From Candidatus Kaiserbacteria bacterium (GTDB taxonomy: Bacteria; Patescibacteriota; Minisyncoccia; Phycocordibacterales; JABMNX01), in the NCBI GenBank assembly GCA_016186705.1, contig JACPLB010000004.1:12381-76380 (forward strand): a stretch of DNA of 64,000 nt, in the 5' to 3' direction. The translations under genes and the position numbers were made by a program. This document shows, in pieces, positions 30,421 to 62,752 of this stretch (position 1 is the first letter of the stretch; each line of letters begins with the position of its first letter). Below the pieces are notes generated by a model. The model did no database searches. It was given only the letters and a program-made list of their open reading frames with translations, and was not told the DNA's origin.

Positions 30421-31032
30421 CTAGCTTTGCGGCGGCACCTTTGTGTTCAACCGAGTCGCGGGGTATTTCGGTTTCCCCTGCGAATCGATGTCTTCGCCCG
30501 GCTTGGTGAAATATTTTTCGCTCGGATTATTGTACTCGAGTTTCACCCCCGGCTTTGAAGACCAGATCTTGACGAAGTGTTTGCTCGTCAGAGCGTCTTG
30601 CGACACCCAGAGCGTCCCTTCGCCATTGTGCGTCCGGAGGACGGGATTTATTTCCCCGTTTTGCGAGGATGTTTCTTCGCGCTTCGTGACTTCGCCAGTC
30701 TTCGTGGTGCCGAAAAGCACGACGCGCATATTCGGCTTGAGTCCCCGAAGCCCCACGGTAATGGGAAATTCGCCGACGTGGAGCGCCCCTTCCTTGTAGA
30801 GACTTTGACGAATATCGTCCCTGCTGTTGCTGCTCCCCCAAACCATGCCTTGGGCTGGTCCGACGTTCTGCCAGACGCAGAGCTTATAGGCGATGAAACC
30901 CTCGCGAGCCTCACCTTGAGAACATTTGTCGGCACGTACGATAGAATCAACCGCCGTCGCGCATGCACCGAGGGTGAGCAATCCCGCCAGAAGTACGCTG
31001 AAGAGCGGTGTCAGGTTGAGGACACGCTTCAT
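30421..31032 (-). CDS. Lipoprotein of unknown function (lipobox LTLGAC)
   Basis: MKRVLNLTPLFSVLLAGLLTLGACATAV has signal peptidase II features. The ATG at 31032 was verified and forms an ATGA overlap with the upstream gene. Confidence 0.6.
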   Translation of the reverse strand: MKRVLNLTPLFSVLLAGLLTLGACATAVDSIVRADKCSQGEAREGFIAYKLCVWQNVGPAQGMVWGSSNSRDDIRQSLYKEGALHVGEFPITVGLRGLKPNMRVVLFGTTKTGEVTKREETSSQNGEINPVLRTHNGEGTLWVSQDALTSKHFVKIWSSKPGVKLEYNNPSEKYFTKPGEDIDSQGKPKYPATRLNTKVPPQS

Positions 31033-31688
31033 GACGCTCCTCCTGTCTTTGCCGTCCTCAGCGCCCAATTCACGCAACGCTCGGGTTTCACGAGGATGTA
31101 CTTAACGTTCTCGTGAACGAAAACGTACTCGCGCGTTGACGCCCCCTCTTGGAAAGCGACTTCAACACAGCGTTTGAGCTTTTTCTTTTTGTCCTTGCCG
31201 CCACGTCCGTAGACCATGACGTCAAGTGTGTCCCCCTTCTTAAGCGAGCCGCTTGTGCCGCTGTCTGCCTTCGCGAGCTCGAGAAGTTTCTTTGCCACCT
31301 CATCGGGAAGCTTCATTTCTTTCTTGATGAGGTCCATCGCGTCAGAGAGGCCTTCCGGGTCCTTATTTGTCGGGTCGAACCACGGATCGTGCCCGTAGCT
31401 CTTCCAGACGAACGGACAGGATTGCGGTTTCTCCGCGCCGGGTGTCGTGACTGTTTTGACCGCACTGTCCGAAAACTCGACAGGCGGCGGTCCGTCTTTA
31501 CCCGACGGAAGGTGTTCCGTCGAGGCGGAACGCCACGGTTGCGCGTCCCCTTTGCCGTTAACCGAGAAGTCTGGGCAATTGCCGACGCATGTGCCGGCAA
31601 CGGAATTGTTGCCGGCGAACGAACACGCGCCAAGCGTGAACGAAGCCGCAACCATGAAAGCAAGCGCTTTCAGAGTACTCTGGACCAT
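31029..31688 (-). CDS. Lipoprotein of unknown function (lipobox FTLGAC)
   Basis: MVQSTLKALAFMVAASFTLGACSF...; Cys-containing N-terminal region (CVGNCPDF), Lys-rich C-terminus. Confidence 0.6.
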   Translation of the reverse strand: MVQSTLKALAFMVAASFTLGACSFAGNNSVAGTCVGNCPDFSVNGKGDAQPWRSASTEHLPSGKDGPPPVEFSDSAVKTVTTPGAEKPQSCPFVWKSYGHDPWFDPTNKDPEGLSDAMDLIKKEMKLPDEVAKKLLELAKADSGTSGSLKKGDTLDVMVYGRGGKDKKKKLKRCVEVAFQEGASTREYVFVHENVKYILVKPERCVNWALRTAKTGGAS

Positions 31689-56688: not shown

Positions 56689-57645
56689 ATGACAGTGTTA
56701 AGGAACAAGAATAAAAGCGGACAAGATATTGTTTACGGATGGGGCAAATGGAGTTCCAAAGATTCTAGGGACCCTCTTCCTGACTTTAGTAATGATTTTT
56801 GGATTAAATTAAAGCCTGTAAAGCGTAAGGTTGAAAATCTAAAAGAGGAATTATTGCTTTACGCCGAGAAATTCAGGGAAATCTTAAAGAAAAGATACAT
56901 TTTTGTCCTGATGAGCGGAGGTCTTGACGGGGAGATTATTGCAAGAACATTTCTGGAGTTAAAAATCCCCTTTACGGCCTTTATATGCGAGTTTACTGAC
57001 TTTTCAAATAAGCACGATATAGATTATGCGAAAAGATTCTGCGACAAGTTCAATGTTGACAAGTACATCTACAGAATGAACAGCGCGGAATTTTATGAAG
57101 AGATTGTTAAAACCCAAAGAAAGGGTGTTATCTTTAATATTTTGGTTGTCCACCAGGTGTATGAAATAGCGTCTTACATCATCAAATCATTGAATGGCTA
57201 TTGCATAAGCACTTTGGGATCCTCTGTTTCATCGTCCACAATAATCAGCCATAATAAGGGAGATCATTTTTTTCATTTTCTCTCGGACAGCTACAAGCTA
57301 AGAACTTTGCTGAGAGGCTTTTATGACCATTTCACCAGCAGTGAGCTGTTACTGGCAAATATCGGCGATGAAATAGCACTAAAAAATTATAAAAAGATAA
57401 CTAATAATGAGGAGGCGATAGAATTGAGAAATAAAATTTATTCTCATTACTACCCTGATTTAGAAAAACGCCCGAAGTATCACGGCTGGGAACATGAAAA
57501 AAGAATACAGTTCATATTCAGAAAAAGGGTTAGGGATGTTTATCCACTGCTTTATCCAGAACACAGGTTTCAGGAATTTAAATTAGGCTACGAACGCGCT
57601 CTTGAATTATTGGGACGAAAAACAATCAAAGATGGAGACAATTGA
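56689..57645 (+). CDS. PP-loop (adenine-nucleotide alpha-hydrolase) ATP-pyrophosphatase family protein of unknown specificity
   Basis: …RYIFVLMSGGLDGEIIARTF… matches the SGGxD(S/G) PP-loop of the QueC/Asn-synthetase/TilS/argininosuccinate-synthase superfamily. The gene and its flanks are markedly AT-rich relative to neighbours. Confidence 0.5.
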   Translation: MTVLRNKNKSGQDIVYGWGKWSSKDSRDPLPDFSNDFWIKLKPVKRKVENLKEELLLYAEKFREILKKRYIFVLMSGGLDGEIIARTFLELKIPFTAFICEFTDFSNKHDIDYAKRFCDKFNVDKYIYRMNSAEFYEEIVKTQRKGVIFNILVVHQVYEIASYIIKSLNGYCISTLGSSVSSSTIISHNKGDHFFHFLSDSYKLRTLLRGFYDHFTSSELLLANIGDEIALKNYKKITNNEEAIELRNKIYSHYYPDLEKRPKYHGWEHEKRIQFIFRKRVRDVYPLLYPEHRFQEFKLGYERALELLGRKTIKDGDN

Positions 57646-57841
57646 CAAAACCGACAAATCTCCGATTCCGCGCTGCAACTACTGCGGCGAATGGAAATGG
57701 GACAAAGGGCTCACCACAAAAGATATAATCCACAGTGTCAAGGATTTAAAAACTGGAGAATGCCAAATCGTCAAGTCTATTTTTACCGTTTGTAAAGACA
57801 GGCAATGCGGGGAATGCCTTGAATTGGCTTACAAATACTAA
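57632..57841 (+). CDS. Small Cys-rich (CxxC...C...C...CxxC) protein, Zn-ribbon-like
   Basis: METIDKTDKSPIPRCNYCGEWKWDKG...CQIVKSIFTVCKDRQCGEC... It overlaps the 3' end of the PP-loop gene. An alternative start at 57602 is possible. Confidence 0.35.
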   Translation: METIDKTDKSPIPRCNYCGEWKWDKGLTTKDIIHSVKDLKTGECQIVKSIFTVCKDRQCGECLELAYKY

Positions 57842-57900: not shown

Positions 57901-58854
57901 TTACACGACCTGAACAAGAGTAGATACCCCATTTCCGCCTGACGGACCTGTAGAACCAGAGGAACCTCCGGGACTTCCACCGGCTCCGCCACCTCCCCCT
58001 GCTCCTCCCGCAACAGATACGGAACCGCTGTTTGATAAAGTGCCTTTATAAAGTAATATAACACGTCCACCTCCTGCCCCGCCGCCGCCATTGCCGCCAC
58101 CGCCTCCCTGACAATCTCCCCCTCCGCTTGCGTTTTCTCCGTTACCTCCCCCTCCGCCGTCTCCTCCGATAGCAGAAATGATACCACTTGCGCCTATTGT
58201 CAGATTGCCTCCAACAATAAGAATTAATGCACCTCCTCTTGCCGTTGAGCCTGCACCTCCCGAACCGCCCTGACCAACTGTGCAACCAGATTCTGGTCCT
58301 CCACCTCCTCCGGCGGCGCCATTGCCTCCCGCACCTCCTGTTCCCCCTCCTCCGGCAGTGCCAGCACTTCCTCCTCCACCGCCTCCAGTCTGGTCTGTAA
58401 CTCCACTTGCTCCGCTTGCCGCGCCTGGCTGCGCTGATCGGTATTTTGAAAAAGTTCCCGTTGGAACTCCCGTGGTCGGCTGATTTGATTCGCTTGGAAA
58501 TAAAGTGTCCGCCGCTGCTCCGTTATTTGCTCCGGGGTCGACAAACCGCGAGACATCAATATCTTCTGCAGTATAAGATACCCCCAAGCCGTTCATGTGC
58601 AATGTCCCGTTGATGGTGCAATTTCCCTTCACGTAAATCAACATGGCTGCGCACGCAGAGCCGGAAGTTAAATTTACTCCGGAATTGATTATCAGAGAAT
58701 TATAATTTTTTAGAGCGACATTGCTTACAGGTGCGATTGTTGTATTCGTGGAAATCGTCACATCACCGTCACTGCCATCCCCAAAATAATTTTCTATCGA
58801 ACCCCCACCGGCGGCGCCGAGGAGTGTTTTGAATGACGTTCCAAAGGGAGACAT
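57901..58854 (-). CDS. Glycine-rich repeat protein (N-terminal ~150-aa domain plus long GGxGG/GGNG solenoid-like repeats), no signal peptide
   Basis: …IENYFGDGSDGDVTISTNTTI… N-terminal domain, then >150 aa of Gly-rich repeats separated by short hydrophobic beta-like blocks (ALILIVGGNLTIG…, RVILLYKGTLSN…). Confidence 0.55.
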   Translation of the reverse strand: MSPFGTSFKTLLGAAGGGSIENYFGDGSDGDVTISTNTTIAPVSNVALKNYNSLIINSGVNLTSGSACAAMLIYVKGNCTINGTLHMNGLGVSYTAEDIDVSRFVDPGANNGAAADTLFPSESNQPTTGVPTGTFSKYRSAQPGAASGASGVTDQTGGGGGGSAGTAGGGGTGGAGGNGAAGGGGGPESGCTVGQGGSGGAGSTARGGALILIVGGNLTIGASGIISAIGGDGGGGGNGENASGGGDCQGGGGGNGGGGAGGGRVILLYKGTLSNSGSVSVAGGAGGGGGAGGSPGGSSGSTGPSGGNGVSTLVQVV

Positions 58855-58873
58855 GGGAGATCTGTAAAGTTAT

Positions 58874-59233
58874 CTAGCTCATATTGAGACCTGCGGCAAA
58901 TCCATACCAAATGGTACCGCCGTCTATCGTAACAAAAGTGAGGATGTCAACGCCGGCGGCAGTCAAGGTTGGGGCTGTTCCTCCTGCCCAATCAACTGAC
59001 GCCGGCCAGTTGACCGTTTGCGACCCGCCGTTTGTGAGAATAAGGGTAAAACTTCCTGCCGTGCCCGACGCGGGAGCGCCGGAAAAAGTAAACGTTGTGG
59101 TAGACGTGTCTATTGTTCCTGTAACAACATTTCCGAGGGCAATATTAATATCTTGAGTACCGCCTCCGATTGAACCAATTGCATTTACGCTCTCGGCGCG
59201 CACAATGATTGGAGATGTAAACTTAATTGCCAT
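58874..59233 (-). CDS. Hypothetical Thr/Gly-rich beta-strand protein
   Basis: MAIKFTSPIIVRAES...TFTFSGAPASGTAGSFTLILTNGG...TIWYGFAAGLNMS. An earlier ATG at 59254 is also possible. It is co-directional with and tightly spaced to its neighbours. Confidence 0.4.
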   Translation of the reverse strand: MAIKFTSPIIVRAESVNAIGSIGGGTQDINIALGNVVTGTIDTSTTTFTFSGAPASGTAGSFTLILTNGGSQTVNWPASVDWAGGTAPTLTAAGVDILTFVTIDGGTIWYGFAAGLNMS

Positions 59234-59489
59234 AGTATAAATCCTTTTTATCAATACTTAAAACCTCTTCTCCTTTTTTGTTATACAATTTTAATTCTGA
59301 GTCGCTCTCAACAACCTTGAAATATTTAAGCATCTTAATGTCGAGTGTTTCTTTTTTATTGAAGAAACTAAGGTACGGGGCAAGAATGTTTCCAAGAACA
59401 AAAGAAACCGATCCAAAAAGCAGAATTTTTAAAAAGTTTCTTCTTTCTCCCGAGATGGGTGGTATATTCTTACGTTTTCCTGTCTCCAT
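59223..59489 (-). CDS. Small protein with a twin-arginine (Tat) signal peptide
   Basis: …SGERRNFLKILLFGSVSFVLGNILA… matches S/T-R-R-x-F-L-K followed by an h-region and AxA-like site. The mature part is ~55 aa. It lies directly downstream of tatA. Confidence 0.5.
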   Translation of the reverse strand: METGKRKNIPPISGERRNFLKILLFGSVSFVLGNILAPYLSFFNKKETLDIKMLKYFKVVESDSELKLYNKKGEEVLSIDKKDLYYGN

Positions 59490-59538
59490 ACGTATGTACT
59501 TACGCGTTCAAGTCAGCAAAGCAGACTCTCGCCAACAC

Positions 59539-59730
59539 CTATTGATGGGACGGTGTGTCTGAATTTTTATCATCTGCCAGCTCCGTTTCAATTTCTTTTT
59601 TCCCTTTTTTGAATTCCCCACTGAATCTTCCTAAACTGCGGGCAAATTCCGTTATCTTCTTGCCGCCAAAAAACAAAATGCCAATGGCAAGTACGATAAT
59701 TAAGATTTCCGGCAATCCAAGTCCAAACAT
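59539..59730 (-). CDS. tatA: Sec-independent protein translocase TatA/E
   Basis: MFGLGLPEILIIVLAIGILFFGGKKITEFARSLG is the canonical TatA TM plus amphipathic helix. Confidence 0.85.
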   Translation of the reverse strand: MFGLGLPEILIIVLAIGILFFGGKKITEFARSLGRFSGEFKKGKKEIETELADDKNSDTPSHQ

Positions 59731-59740
59731 ATATTAAGTG

Positions 59741-60490
59741 TTATTTACTGATAATAATTCCGACCAAATATAAAGTGACAAGGGGCAGGGACAAGAATGC
59801 CATTGAGACTCCGCTTCCATCCGGTGTTATGATGGCGGAAAATAGTAAAAATGATATGAGTGCGTACCGCCACTGTTTTTTCCAGAAATGTTCGGGCGTT
59901 AATCCTATGCGGCTTAAGAGAAACATAAACACCGGCAATAAAAATGATACGCCAGTGACAATAACGATTGAAAAGACAAGACTGATGAATTCGGGTACGG
60001 AGAAGAGCAAGGTGGCTCCGATTGCTGATGCATAGGTATACAGAAAAGAGAGCGTCGGCGGAATAATAACAGTGTAAGCAAAAAATGCTCCGAGAAGAAA
60101 CAAAAGCATTGACGGAAAGAGTGTCATGCTCAATAATTTCCGTTCATGAAGATGTAGTGCCGGTATCATATAAGTGGTTATTTTGTACAAAAAATACGGG
60201 AGTGTGAGAAGCAGTGACAATAGTGTGGCAATCAGCGCCTGTGATACAAATGCGCTTATGGGGTTGGTAACCACAAGCTCAACATTGTCAGGCATCAGAT
60301 CATTCTTCATCTTCTCAAAAAGAATTGCTGAAAAAGACTGCTTGTCCGGGACGGGAAACGGGAACAAAATACCGCCGATTTTGACATTCGTAAACCCGAA
60401 GAAAAAGAAAAAGGCGGAAAGTAAAAGAATGCTGATGCCCAAGTGAAGTATGGCGCTTCTCAGTGTGCGCCATTCAGTTGCGAATGCCAT
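59741..60490 (-). CDS. tatC: Sec-independent protein translocase TatC
   Basis: Six-TM protein with the TatC signature …LTPEHFWKKQWRYALISFLLFSAIITPDGSGVSMAFLSLP…. Confidence 0.85.
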   Translation of the reverse strand: MAFATEWRTLRSAILHLGISILLLSAFFFFFGFTNVKIGGILFPFPVPDKQSFSAILFEKMKNDLMPDNVELVVTNPISAFVSQALIATLLSLLLTLPYFLYKITTYMIPALHLHERKLLSMTLFPSMLLFLLGAFFAYTVIIPPTLSFLYTYASAIGATLLFSVPEFISLVFSIVIVTGVSFLLPVFMFLLSRIGLTPEHFWKKQWRYALISFLLFSAIITPDGSGVSMAFLSLPLVTLYLVGIIISK

Positions 60491-60652
60491 ACATGCTTGC
60501 TTAAAGCAGATTGCGCAAATCCCCGCACACGGCAGGGGTGTTAATTATTGCATTGTTTCGCATCTGTGAATATATTATACGACAGCGATAGCCCCTTTTC
60601 CAAACAACGAAGTGTGGATAAGACGCAACTGCTGTATTATCGGTTTATATAT

Positions 60653-60994
60653 TTAGACCTCTTTTTTCCAAAATTGATGTAGTATCTTGCACGGTTCAAT
60701 AATGCGAGGGTCTCTCACCGTATAATACATATTTCTTCCATCCCGCCGCACCTTTACTAGATAATGTGCGCGGAGGATGGCTAAATGCTGGGAAAGGTTT
60801 GCTTTGCGAATCTTAAGGGCCTTTCGGAGTTCTTCAACTGTTAATTCCCTCTTTTTAAGAATATTTAGAATTTCAAGGCGTTTATGATTGGCTAAAATTC
60901 TGTAAATTAAGGCGTTCCTTTCGTACGTTTCTTGCGGAAATGGAGAAAGGTGTTTTATGGCACGTATACTGTTTCGTTTTTTTGCTTTTTTCAT
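60653..60994 (-). CDS. ArsR/SmtB-family HTH transcriptional regulator
   Basis: …LANHKRLEILNILKKRELTVEELRKALKIRKANLSQHLAILRAHYLVKVRRDGRNMYY… (winged HTH of the ArsR family). Confidence 0.8.
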   Translation of the reverse strand: MKKAKKRNSIRAIKHLSPFPQETYERNALIYRILANHKRLEILNILKKRELTVEELRKALKIRKANLSQHLAILRAHYLVKVRRDGRNMYYTVRDPRIIEPCKILHQFWKKEV

Positions 60995-61618: not shown

Positions 61619-62752
61619 TTATTGAGATTCAGTTGTCGTTGCGGTTTCTTCTGTACTCGACGGAGTCGAGCTTTCAGGAGAGGCGTTTTCAGAATCAAGA
61701 GTGGTTTCCGTTGTTGTTGCAGATTCGTCTGAAACCGGGGTCGTTGATGCGGTTGAAGTAATTCCGGTGCCGACAATTACAGTGCGCTCCGCAGTGCCGG
61801 TATTCCCCGCCTGGTCGGTCGCGCTGTAGGTAATGATATGCGTTCCGTCAGATGACGTATCGACATTGACATTCGTTACATCTGCACCGTTGACTTTAAA
61901 GTGAATGCCGAGATTGTCACTTACATTGTCCGTTACGACTGCTCCAAGGTCAACGTATGATGAGCCGACAGAAATTTCCGCAGGATTATTTCCGTTAACG
62001 GTGATGACCGGCGGCGCGGTATCTGAAGAAGAAGTCACAGTCGAAGCGGTTTGGGTATCGCTCTCGGCAAGCAATTCTCGCACCGCCTCCTCTACAATCT
62101 GCCTTATCTCTTCTCTGCTTGGGGCGGGAGGTGTCGTTGCTACCGCCTCCTCTTGAGGAGGGACTTCGGCGACATGGGGAGGAGAAACTCCCGCCGCGAC
62201 TGGCGGTTTCTCTTCAGAGATAACCGGGACATATCCTTCGAAAATTTCCTCTTTCGGGCTTAACAGCTTCCCAACAAGACCGGAGTATTCCGTCGTTGCG
62301 ATTTTCTGCGTCACCCCCTTATTTCTCTCTACCGTCTGCGCTTCCCTAAAATACGAGAGTTTCGCATCGACAACTTGTCCGAGCTGTTCTGCAACATATC
62401 GCCCTAAGTCACGCCTCCCAAGCGCTACCTTTGACACAGTGAGCACTTCTTTTACCGTGTCGTTTTTCCAGACGTAATCTTTAACGGCAATCGTATTGTA
62501 CGTGTATGTAACATAGTATGAAGTATTGTCTTCTTCAACCGAGACGACCCGGAGCTCCGGATCAAAGGTGTCTATATTCGCAGAGACAATAAAACTATTG
62601 TCAACTGAACGCACAATTGTTTGACTTGAGAGAACCGCGTCGCGGGCGTCAGGACTTGCCGCAAATGCCGCGCCGGCGCCGAGGAAAATAACCCCAAATA
62701 TAATTGGAACCGCGTTATGGTATGTAATGAAATGTATAAGCTTCTGAAGCAT
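61619..62752 (-). CDS. Secreted protein with an Ig-like (HYR/DUF5011-like) domain and Ser/Thr-rich C-terminus
   Basis: Signal peptide (…IIFGVIFLGAGAAFAAS); …DNLGIHFKVNGADVTNVNVDTSSDGTHIITYSATDQAGNTGTAERTVIV…; C-terminal TSTASTTPVSDESATTTETT low-complexity tail. Confidence 0.55.
   Translation of the reverse strand: MLQKLIHFITYHNAVPIIFGVIFLGAGAAFAASPDARDAVLSSQTIVRSVDNSFIVSANIDTFDPELRVVSVEEDNTSYYVTYTYNTIAVKDYVWKNDTVKEVLTVSKVALGRRDLGRYVAEQLGQVVDAKLSYFREAQTVERNKGVTQKIATTEYSGLVGKLLSPKEEIFEGYVPVISEEKPPVAAGVSPPHVAEVPPQEEAVATTPPAPSREEIRQIVEEAVRELLAESDTQTASTVTSSSDTAPPVITVNGNNPAEISVGSSYVDLGAVVTDNVSDNLGIHFKVNGADVTNVNVDTSSDGTHIITYSATDQAGNTGTAERTVIVGTGITSTASTTPVSDESATTTETTLDSENASPESSTPSSTEETATTTESQ

Follow-up and report, generated by a model that had tools for sequence, protein, structure and literature searches.

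A conserved Parcubacteria operon joins a predicted minimal Tat translocase to a small twin-arginine protein and phage tail-fibre modules

This analysis concerns the twin-arginine (Tat) translocase genes of a member of the Kaiserbacteria, a CPR lineage with a tiny genome, and the genes packed behind them. Genomes usually retain Tat for the export of redox enzymes that contain cofactors, and CPR bacteria are not known to have such enzymes. The initial annotation of this locus had called Tat systems uncommon in reduced genomes, a view that did not hold for this group: TatA and TatC have been reported in several CPR classes, and Tat is not especially rare there (PMC9166423). The locus lies in a stretch of 64,000 nucleotides from a Candidatus Kaiserbacteria contig (JACPLB010000004.1), referred to here as the window, in which five minus-strand genes at positions 57901-60490 form what we call the cassette. 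Its genes and their neighbours are as follows.

59741-60490, minus strand: tatC, 249 aa (Pfam TatC, E 2.4e-41)
59539-59730, minus strand: tatA, 63 aa (Pfam TatA_B_E, E 3.8e-11)
59223-59489, minus strand: RR protein, 88 aa, with RRNFLK at residues 16-21
58874-59233, minus strand: 119-aa "socket" protein, all-beta, a C-terminal domain of phage tail fibres (PHROG matches)
57901-58854, minus strand: 317-aa Gly-rich protein, with a "plug" peptide, a YFGDGSDG domain and a Gly-rich C-terminal half
60653-60994, minus strand: ArsR regulator (NCBIfam NF033788 and Pfam HTH_5)
60574-60603, minus strand: promoter-like site in the ArsR-tatC spacer, TTGGAA-18-TATAAT
56689-57645, plus strand: 318-aa AsnB/PP-loop-like protein (weak Asn_synthase match)
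57602-57841, plus strand: 79-aa Cys-rich protein, overlapping the end of the 318-aa gene

All five open reading frames are present on the minus strand and are as tightly packed as had been described, with spacings, from tatC to the Gly-rich gene, of 10 nt, 49 nt, an 11-nt overlap and 19 nt. Inside the cassette, we found no terminator-like site on the coding strand and no promoter-like site scoring above 9/12; the promoter scan returned one strong site, with 10/12 matches, in the spacer between the ArsR gene and tatC. The TATAAT -10 box of this site is invariant, and the ATATTCACAGATnCGAAAC block that follows it is conserved, at four loci (the window and the homologous loci L002, L011 and L022), and an upstream TTATC[CA]ACA box is conserved too. 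The ArsR gene reported just upstream of the cassette is indeed there, and its product is an ArsR/SmtB-type winged-helix protein that scores 76.5 bits against NF033788, above the NCBIfam cut-off of 55, and also matches Pfam HTH_5. Such a gene likewise precedes the cassette in L001/L002, L011 and L022. By inspection of the translation, the helix 3 stretch of the window protein reads LEILNIL, with no CVC metal-binding motif and no Cys pair. The operon may be expressed from the conserved promoter-like site adjoining the regulator gene.

The first gene product matches Pfam PF00902 at 142 bits against a gathering score of 25.1 and aligns with solved TatC structures at E 7e-20; it scores below the NCBIfam equivalog cut-offs, which marks it as a divergent member of the family. 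Glu-116 in its HLHERK motif corresponds to E. coli Glu-103 and aligns with KHERR of solved TatC, the HER motif being conserved, and Glu-6 in ATEWR was matched to E. coli Glu-15 by eye only, as the alignment does not extend to the N-terminus. TatA, whose gene begins 10 nt after tatC, matches Pfam PF02416 at 42.5 bits against a gathering score of 21, and NCBIfam models of the tatAE type as well. In the minimal TatAC systems of Gram-positive bacteria, TatA can supply the TatB function. By family membership, the pair is predicted to be a minimal TatAC translocase and would transport folded proteins. The cassette TatCs of L011, L023 and L025 match that of the window at 1e-62 to 1e-76, and the TatC of L009 does so at only 3e-13; on these scores, the cassette TatC is a subfamily of its own, which travels with the RR protein.

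The RR protein carries E-R-R-N-F-L-K at residues 15-21, which conforms to the S/T-R-R-x-F-L-K consensus and contains a perfect RRNFLK motif. In an alignment of 39 family members, which are 27-43% identical to the window protein apart from one relative at 70%, Arg-16, Arg-17 and Lys-21 are conserved at 90% or more; because this conservation persists despite the low identity of the family members, the motif is not a chance match, and the textbook Tat motif claimed for this protein is confirmed. The family conserves the entire signal region, not the RR pair alone. Its h-region is Gly-rich (FGGGAFVLG), with a best 12-residue Kyte-Doolittle mean of 2.29, from residue 22, in the window protein. There is no A-x-A site in the sequence, the family consensus at that place being LGKIxGPS, and the window protein has Asn-34 where most family members have Lys. 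The AF2 model (pLDDT 82.6) has a continuous helix over residues 14-43 and strands over residues 50-80; the mature part is a four-strand beta-meander of ~30 residues, for which a fold search returned generic single beta-propeller blades only. The sole Pfam match is the Rieske TM_PetC anchor, at 28 bits and below the threshold of 37.1. Like Rieske proteins with their uncleaved Tat signal anchor, the RR protein has an N-terminal RR followed by a long helix able to serve as a membrane anchor, in agreement with the modelled helix 14-43; however, it has neither a Rieske domain nor cluster ligands. A profile search gave 127 representative clusters, all of 62-148 aa and all with full-length matches. 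We conclude that the RR protein is the founding member of an unannotated and previously undescribed family, as delineated by profile, and we predict that it is a Tat substrate, its signal acting as a cleaved peptide or as an anchor. Within the 64-kb window, a crude scan for motifs of this kind gave no second textbook Tat signal.

The RR gene directly follows tatC-tatA at six of seven loci (the window, L001/2, L011, L023, L025 and L107), all of them CPR/Parcubacteria-type, and it occurs in none of the roughly 90 phage or viral loci scanned (L008, L010, L014-L018 and L027-L106); a profile of its C-terminal domain found nothing among phage fibre proteins. In L025, the RR gene is followed by a gene for a Sec-type surface protein, and in L022, it lies directly after the ArsR gene on a 2-kb contig. 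Neither locus has fibre genes, and the link of the RR protein to Tat is therefore closer than its link to the fibre. The six-of-seven linkage, the co-variation with a distinct TatC subfamily, the tiny mature part and the conservation of the whole signal region would also fit an RR protein that acts as an accessory subunit or regulator of TatAC, for example, as a signal-peptide-like subunit that stays bound permanently, or as an organiser of the membrane. We consider this quite improbable, because the conserved full S/T-RR-x-F-L-K consensus is a hallmark of substrates, because the TatA that is present could itself provide the TatB function and because we know of no Tat component with this architecture.

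The gene after that of the RR protein had been described as encoding a 120-aa Thr/Gly-rich beta-protein. It is Thr/Gly-rich (16% Thr and 15% Gly) and all-beta; its length differs slightly, translation giving 119 aa if it starts at the ATG shared with relatives and 126 aa if it starts at a TTG further upstream. The protein matches PHROG tail-fibre families 24774, 9017 and 7760 at 5e-14 to 1e-12 and has more than 1800 homologues, the top 120 of which, the self-match aside, are 71-86% identical to it. It has at least 590 viral-contig matches at 64-85% identity. In phages, the homologue search places this socket domain at the C-terminus of 188-208-aa proteins; socket-bearing phage proteins overall span 129-904 aa, and the window protein is the domain alone. 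Pfam PF26209 (Phage_phiTE_241_C) did not match the socket protein at E <= 0.1; this family appears in the precomputed annotation of the socket homologues in L107 and, weakly, L023, and a fresh Pfam scan of the L023 homologue gave no family at E <= 0.01. The AF2 model (pLDDT 87.6, all-beta) had 199 matches in BFVD at E <= 1e-3, the best of which (TM 0.7-0.85) are named tail fibre, collagen-like or tropism determinant, and its best PDB match was weak (a phage capsid spike, E 1e-3). We conclude that the 119-aa protein is the highly conserved domain found at the C-terminus of phage tail fibres and that it has neither their shaft nor the part by which they attach to the virion. A complete phage tail fibre was also considered and is ruled out, as the domain stands alone and there are no virion genes nearby.

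The last gene of the cassette, the third after tatA, encodes a protein with 30% Gly overall and 45% after residue 150, which gave no match among Pfam families or PDB sequences beyond low-complexity ones. Its residues 1 to about 16-17 (MSPFGTSFKTLLGAAG) form the conserved peptide that we term plug; a phage-type YFGDGSDG domain and the Gly-rich C-terminal half follow. Its homologues in L008 (55% identity), L010 and L086/L089 belong to phage tail modules, in which they come immediately behind the fibre gene. The suggestion that the two repeat proteins are fibre-like was thus correct, both being phage tail-fibre tip modules, and so was the statement that they lack signal peptides: over the first ~50 residues, their best 12-residue Kyte-Doolittle mean is at most 1.15, compared with 2.3 for the RR protein. 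No N-terminal hydrophobic segment was found on socket or third-gene products, including those of L011, L023 and L107.

The plug peptide is common to the third genes of L001, L011 and L107 despite unrelated bodies, with a CPR consensus of MSPFGxSF[KR]TxLGxAG. Where viral loci have a readable ORF downstream of the socket-bearing fibre gene, this ORF starts MP[LI]G in 54 of 77, compared with 58 of 859 among all ORFs of those loci; by this measure, the plug peptide is a specific mark of the position downstream of a socket-bearing fibre gene. In relatives, the Gly-rich protein is replaced by a SPRY/DUF7483 protein or a 224-aa protein with the same peptide kept; the third protein of L011 has 819 aa and PHROG matches to a phage virion-protein family (2e-176) and a tail-fibre family (1e-87), and that of L023 has 1236 aa. 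Downstream genes that are absent or variable in close relatives had been named as evidence against a functional cassette. The third gene does vary, but its variants are alternative phage fibre proteins with the same N-terminal peptide, so the variation looks like cassette swapping, not loss of function.

The 318-aa gene, which is convergent on the Gly-rich gene, also neighbours it in L009 and L004 and has a homologue (5e-39) inside the tail-fibre module of phage L008; it is likely an accessory gene of the Gly-rich module. The 79-aa gene has a homologue in L009 (9.5e-47), again paired with a 318-aa homologue, and the AT-rich convergent island noted downstream of the cassette therefore holds genes that travel with the Gly-rich gene. 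In L009, the Gly-rich module lies beside a different TatA-TatC type, at a contig end. Both downstream proteins and the 318-aa gene are closest to phage tail modules, as would be expected if the region were a decaying prophage or tailocin-like element that neighbours the tat genes by chance. We regard such an element as exceedingly improbable: genes for a capsid, terminase, tube, sheath, baseplate or integrase do not occur near the cassette, the flanks are housekeeping genes (gatB, GAPDH, rpiB and rpe) and flanking ORFs have no PHROG matches. Further, the arrangement is kept across divergent genomes, and in L107, the cassette occupies the same gatB...GAPDH-rpiB-rpe chromosomal site as in the window. 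Prophage identity as such is ruled out by the housekeeping flanks without PHROG matches.

The order tatC-tatA-RR-socket-type-large protein is found in the window, L001, L011, L023 and L107, five divergent CPR genomes across which RR-protein identity drops to 33-41%, and the idea of a conserved cassette, not of chance neighbours, is thereby upheld. In all five, the socket gene is unchanged in position and orientation, and it either overlaps the RR gene or is separated from it by 8-43 nt. In a neighbour-joining tree, CPR socket sequences group by CPR lineage, and the gene behaves as if vertically inherited. The CPR sockets are consistently trimmed to the socket domain and share a CPR-specific N-terminal strand, MAIKFT[ST]PI.V. 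IS200/IS605 transposases adjoin the cassette in L001 and L023. The GC content of the fibre genes exceeds that of the tat and RR genes in four of four genomes checked, a difference that can be explained by amino-acid composition (Gly/Ala/Thr-rich compared with Phe/Ile/Leu-rich).

Two further explanations have to be weighed against this arrangement. Tat and the RR protein could be a self-contained pair, with the RR protein a real, and perhaps the only, client with a membrane function of its own and the downstream site a landing pad for phage fibre genes whose products are neither exported nor in contact with the RR protein. The RR genes of L025 and L022 without fibre genes, the swapping of the third gene among close relatives, the adjoining transposases and the GC difference would suit such independent neighbours; yet the socket gene is fixed in place despite the divergence of the RR protein, its phylogeny follows CPR lineages, the sockets are consistently trimmed and the GC gap has a compositional explanation, and we think this reading unlikely. 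Alternatively, the fibre genes could be an intracellular anti-phage decoy, in which shaft-less socket and plug proteins titrate or mis-cap the fibre parts of infecting phages that have this highly conserved socket/plug system too, and so give non-infectious progeny, with Tat a mere neighbour. At 83-85% identity, phage sockets resemble the CPR socket as closely as some of its CPR homologues do, and the lack of a virion-attachment part in the CPR socket and of signal peptides on both fibre proteins would fit a decoy. However, a decoy does not account for the conserved placement of these genes in one operon with Tat and the RR protein, a PADLOC search gave no defence-family match, and the socket-module matches in INPHARED are weak and confined to Roseobacter and Pseudomonas phages; we consider it very improbable.

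Our best reading is that the cassette is a conserved Parcubacteria/Kaiserbacteria operon of a minimal TatC-TatA pair, a dedicated client and phage-derived cargo, and, taken whole with the export step, we give it slightly less than an even chance. On this reading, which we put forward tentatively, the RR protein of a dedicated, ArsR-controlled Tat cassette would carry a phage-type fibre tip, already folded, to the cell surface or anchor it there. Tat suggests itself as the route because phage fibre proteins are made for folding inside the cytoplasm and lack signal peptides. The plug peptide would dock the third protein onto the socket domain, and the N-terminal strand MAIKFT[ST]PI.V of the socket would bind the RR beta domain in the cytoplasm. 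Guided by the one RR signal, the complex would then cross the membrane through Tat in its folded state, with the partner proteins as hitch-hikers, and it would be tethered through an uncleaved signal anchor or, if the signal is cleaved, released. The result would be an exchangeable binding device of the phage type, whose most plausible use is to attach the cell to a host cell. Four observations argue against this reading. The RR beta domain has only about 30 residues and gave generic matches in the fold search; the third proteins of 819 aa (L011) and 1236 aa (L023), as trimers if phage-like, would exceed any known Tat cargo; L025 and L022 have the RR gene without fibre genes; and in L009, the Gly-rich module adjoins a TatA-TatC of another type. 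A broader proposal, that minimal-genome Parcubacteria keep Tat mainly to display interchangeable phage-derived receptor-binding proteins, with a mini-RR carrier, a socket and plug-in binders swapped by recombination with the phage gene pool, seems to us rather doubtful.

Several known systems resemble the cassette in part. The phoD-tatAd-tatCd operon of Bacillus subtilis is a substrate-dedicated minimal TatAC operon and, like the cassette, combines TatA and TatC with their own twin-arginine client and a specific regulator; however, its client PhoD is an enzyme of 60 kDa, compared with a protein of 62-148 aa with a mature domain of ~30 residues in the cassette family, the gene order differs and the cassette adds signal-less phage fibre genes. 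Hydrogenase-2 HybOC and DmsAB are complexes that use Tat in hitch-hiker fashion. A natural precedent with three subunits is PaoABC of E. coli (PMC4273604). As in these complexes, the RR signal is on one subunit only and the signal-less partners are encoded next to it, and the proposed complex would, like them, be exported fully folded. However, PaoABC, HybOC and DmsAB are cofactor redox enzymes with the signal on a full-size catalytic or electron-transfer subunit, whereas here a minimal protein is the presumed carrier of a viral adhesion module. The cassette also resembles modular phage fibre and tailspike systems, where interchangeable receptor-binding proteins fit one conserved attachment module: a highly conserved socket domain precedes a gene with a short conserved N-terminal peptide and a variable body, as at 54 of the 77 viral loci; unlike in those systems, the CPR socket lacks the shaft and the virion-attachment part, there is no virion and the pair lies inside a tat operon, and docking is suggested by conservation. 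Finally, as in tailocins and extracellular contractile injection systems, phage receptor-binding modules appear to have been domesticated by the cell, but in those systems the tube, sheath and baseplate are retained, and release occurs through lysis or through mechanisms dedicated to it, whereas here there is a fibre tip only and a Tat route is proposed.

Independently of the CPR, the analysis brings out a new unannotated Tat-signal family of 127 clusters and a very widespread socket/plug fibre architecture in phages, with at least 590 viral contig matches at 64-85% identity. An operon that pairs Tat with a dedicated mini-substrate is a concrete answer to the purpose of Tat in CPR genomes, and if the fibre tip is exported, the cassette would be the first instance in which Tat serves to display receptor-binding modules of phages. 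How CPR bacteria recognize and bind their hosts is largely unexplained, type IV pili being the only mechanism tested so far (bioRxiv 10.1101/2024.11.25.624915), and the cassette may bear on that question. If the fibre tip is exported, the system would be naturally modular, with a constant carrier, a constant socket and exchangeable binders, and of interest in surface display and in the sequence-based prediction of CPR host range. On the broader proposal, bacteria thought to live attached to other cells would have borrowed the host-recognition hardware of phages.

The five co-directional minus-strand ORFs that the initial annotation had claimed at 57901-60490 are all present there in the ORF table, with the following layout:

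59741-60490, minus strand: tatC (Pfam TatC, E 2.4e-41)
59539-59730, minus strand: tatA (Pfam TatA, E 3.8e-11)
59223-59489, minus strand: 88-aa twin-arginine mini-protein (RR protein), E-R-R-N-F-L-K at residues 15-21, hydrophobic stretch after
From the ATG at 59233, minus strand: 119-aa protein (socket), start common to relatives, 11-nt overlap with the 88-aa ORF
19 nt after the 119-aa ORF, minus strand: 317-aa protein, Gly 30% overall and 45% beyond residue 150

The textbook Tat motif ascribed to the RR protein (E-R-R-N-F-L-K, then a hydrophobic stretch) was confirmed, as was the ArsR/SmtB-type regulator upstream of the cassette. Neither of the last two proteins, described as lacking signal peptides, has an N-terminal hydrophobic segment, and the set of cassette proteins holds a single signal peptide. 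The sole other Tat-type signal candidate in the window, a weak one, is an ORF at 30421-31077 on the minus strand, in which an RR pair precedes a lipoprotein-like signal (DRRSVMKRVL...LLTLGAC). We considered whether a programmed frameshift joins the RR and 119-aa ORFs and rejected this because the 11-nt overlap is not conserved, relatives having gaps of 8-43 nt; an apparent TatC-TatA fusion in L001, the locus of a relative, was likewise discarded, since a run of N had produced it. Further, the tat, RR and arsR genes (window 59223-60994) are AT-rich (GC 0.32-0.43), whereas the fibre genes (window 57901-59233) are GC-rich (0.51-0.54; window mean 0.48), a contrast also seen in the relatives' loci L011, L023 and L107. 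The pattern probably follows from amino-acid composition, and we therefore set aside low GC as a sign of a horizontally acquired island.

From tatC to the end of the 317-aa gene, the coding strand has no terminator-like site, and no promoter-like site scores above 9/12; a promoter-like site with 10/12 matches lies in the ArsR-tatC spacer. The TATAAT box and the ATATTCACAGATnCGAAAC block that follows it are conserved in the window, L002, L011 and L022, the spacers with the conserved non-coding blocks being located as follows:

Window 60491-60652, minus strand: spacer
L002 874-1016: spacer
L011 6547-6713: spacer
L022 1331-1438: spacer

The conserved blocks are TTATC[CA]ACA upstream, then TATAATATATTCACAGATnCGAAAC; TTATC[CA]ACA may serve as the operator of ArsR or as the -35 region. 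A search of the leader against Rfam revealed no riboswitch or other RNA element. Overall, the cassette is a conserved operon, apparently with a single promoter.

The RR family is not represented in Pfam or NCBIfam, and the sole library match of the RR protein, below threshold, is to the Rieske TM_PetC anchor. A word-index search with the 88-aa protein returned only itself and one relative, and from pattern scans of GTDB genomes and JGI metagenomes, run with an alignment of three sequences, the sole genuine gain was L011, a locus already known; two further matches, in Buchnera and in a DnaN containing KLYDQKGEEVLSIDKKDI, were spurious. A profile (HMM) search of 1.8 billion representative proteins, however, yielded 127 clusters, all of 62-148 aa and matching end to end, so that the family is visible only by full HMM search and not by word or pattern searches. 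One member comes from Candidatus Yonathbacteria and bears the UniRef label [quoted passage not shown] and nothing more. In the alignment, a conserved RRxFLK motif is followed by an h-region rich in Gly (FGGGAFVLG), in most cases by a Lys and then GPS, and by a C-terminal block, F+NFRVVE..KEL.FYD..G.EIL.I.K, which is the end of the protein. The AF2 model (pLDDT 82.6) predicts a helix at 14-43 and a four-strand beta-meander at 50-80, the fold of which resembles generic propeller blades only. We noted that the metagenome DnaN sliding clamp (L021 295-1401) is identical to the RR protein C-terminus at 15/18 positions of the matching stretch and scores 20.5 bits with the C-terminal profile, a likeness that is probably due to chance after pattern selection. 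The family HMM had no match in about 90 phage and viral loci scanned, and no homology of the RR C-terminal domain to the shaft segment of phage fibres was found.

We read the genomic context of the RR gene at seven distinct loci. The order tatC-tatA-RR gene occurs in the window, L001/L002, L011, L107, L023 and L025, and on the 2-kb contig L022 the RR gene immediately follows ArsR. The TatCs of the cassettes form one subfamily (mutual matches of 1e-62 or better), from which the TatC of L009, a relative with the Gly-rich module, is distant (3e-13). We conclude that the RR family is real, unannotated and tied to tatC-tatA, as a Tat-consensus mini-protein with a specific TatAC.

The socket protein matches PHROG tail-fibre families at about 1e-13, and a protein search returned more than 1800 homologues, the best 120 of which (self-match excluded) are 71-86% identical and 116-209 aa long. 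On phage contigs, the domain forms the C-terminus of 188-208-aa proteins within structural modules, those of an SU10-like podophage (L014-16) and of L017, and an IMG/VR scan gave at least 590 confirmed matches at 64-85% identity. The AF2 model of the socket is all-beta (pLDDT 87.6) and matches 199 predicted viral structures (best TM 0.7-0.85), many of them named tail fibre, collagen-like or tropism determinant; the best solved-structure match, a weak one, is a phage capsid spike, and searching PDB sequences with the 119-aa and 317-aa proteins yielded either no match or Gly-linker artefacts only. In CPR (Patescibacteria-type bacteria with tiny genomes), the socket proteins begin exactly at the domain (MAIKFT[ST]PI.V). 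We conclude that the 119-aa protein is the tip domain of phage tail fibres and lacks the fibre itself, including the shaft. The fibre genes could also be read as encoding a decoy inside the cell that spoils the assembly of phage fibres, which we judge distinctly improbable; in PADLOC, no defence model matches the cassette proteins, and only a generic HTH was reported. In a neighbour-joining tree, the CPR sockets form two clades matching CPR lineages: those of the window, L001 and L011 fall within the phage radiation, sharing 83-85% identity with phage copies, and for those of L023 and L107 this identity is about 60%. These lineage-following clades suggest an old acquisition with vertical maintenance and not repeated recent insertion.

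The 317-aa protein has homologues in phage tail modules: one, 55% identical, in the phage locus L008, where its gene follows tape-measure, DUF1833, NlpC/P60 and GpJ genes, another on a contig (L010) that also carries terminase and capsid genes, and others encoded immediately after a socket-bearing fibre gene (L086, L089). As third gene of the cassette, L001 and L011 instead have one for an 819-aa SPRY/DUF7483 protein (phage virion-protein PHROG, 2e-176; tail-fibre PHROG, 1e-87); the third-gene product is a LamG/SPRY/DUF7483 protein of 1236 aa in L023 and an unrelated one of 224 aa in L107. Despite their unrelated bodies, these products share one starting peptide (plug):

Window: MSPFGTSFKTLLGAAG
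L011: MSPLGTSFRSLLGAAG
L001: MSPFATSFRTLLGAAG
L107: MSPFGSSFRTILGTAG
L023: MPLGAEFRGLLGTAG

In 80 IMG/VR loci (L027-L106), the ORF downstream of the fibre gene was readable in 77, and in 54 of these it starts with MP[LI]G..K.AL.G.AG, the stop codon of the fibre gene usually overlapping its start codon; of the 859 ORFs that reach 100 aa in those loci, only 58 start with MP[LI]G. We also observed that the fibre proteins of this arrangement end in a domain of about 107 aa that is 64-85% identical across different phage types, and that the gene after the fibre gene starts with MPLGAxKxALxGxAG and continues into many unrelated bodies. Two examples of this two-gene architecture are:

L014 8001-9238
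L086 2560-4039

The third-gene products are interchangeable plug-bearing phage proteins. These comparisons define an architecture that is very widespread in phages, in which a conserved socket domain and a conserved plug peptide are combined with a variable body, and which the CPR cassette has copied; because of this pattern, we infer that the plug peptide would dock on the socket. INPHARED phages gave three weak matches to the socket/plug module (<60% identity), and the system is therefore not nameable from a characterised phage.

Two plus-strand genes converge on the Gly-rich gene:

56689-57645, plus strand: 318-aa AsnB/PP-loop-like protein
57602-57841, plus strand: 79-aa Cys-rich protein, overlapping the 318-aa gene

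Both are conserved in L009 beside a Gly-rich protein 83% identical to that of the window, together with a 2OG-Fe(II) oxygenase and an Asp/Arg hydroxylase, and a homologue of the 318-aa protein lies within the tail-fibre module of phage L008 (10140-10973). Probably the two genes arrived together with the Gly-rich gene and have an accessory or modifying role; they may encode enzymes modifying the Gly-rich fibre protein. The L009 contig ends within the socket gene; a second TatA-TatC pair (L009 4170-5009) lies a few kb away in the opposite gene order, its TatC being the distant one. The cassette is not flanked by phage genes: none of seven flanking ORFs matches a PHROG, its neighbours to one side in the window are GAPDH, rpiB and rpe, and the L107 cassette is placed between gatB and GAPDH-rpiB-rpe. 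That the cassette, with its phage-type fibre genes, is a prophage remnant is in our view scarcely credible. IS200/IS605-type Y1 transposase genes adjoin the cassette in L001 (4157-4843) and L023 (11694-12365), which may have to do with rearrangement of the surrounding region. The cassette is repeatedly found near a gene for a Sec-type surface protein that carries a bacterial Ig-like domain:

Window 61619-62752, minus strand: upstream
L023 12479-13870: downstream
L025 7374-8150: downstream

Phage fibre proteins carry no signals and reach their folded state in the cytoplasm, and CPR genomes are not known to encode the usual cofactor-bearing Tat clients; for these reasons, Tat is a plausible route for the cassette products. 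By analogy with the natural ternary Tat hitch-hiking of PaoABC (PMC4273604), the RR protein would carry or anchor the folded socket/plug complex outside the cell via Tat, making this a dedicated Tat cassette; this is the best-supported reading, to which we give slightly less than an even chance. Counting against it, L025 and L022 are without fibre genes, and some third proteins are very large. Two alternatives have to be weighed: that the genes are independent neighbours at a recombination hotspot, which is unlikely given the same gene order at several loci, and that the RR protein, tied as it is to its TatAC, is a Tat accessory subunit, which we regard as quite improbable. The dedicated Tat cassette can be likened to the substrate-dedicated TatAC operon phoD-tatAdCd of B. 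subtilis combined with a hitch-hiker complex, and its RR protein to a Rieske-type signal anchor; it differs from hitch-hiker complexes in that its presumed cargo is viral and not a redox enzyme, and it belongs to none of these three families. We found no description of this tat/RR/fibre cassette in the literature. Tat systems had been called uncommon in reduced genomes, but in CPR Tat as such is no rarity (PMC9166423). As a tentative suggestion, possible rather than probable, the cassette may provide these bacteria with Tat-displayed, swappable phage receptor-binding proteins that are used for attachment.
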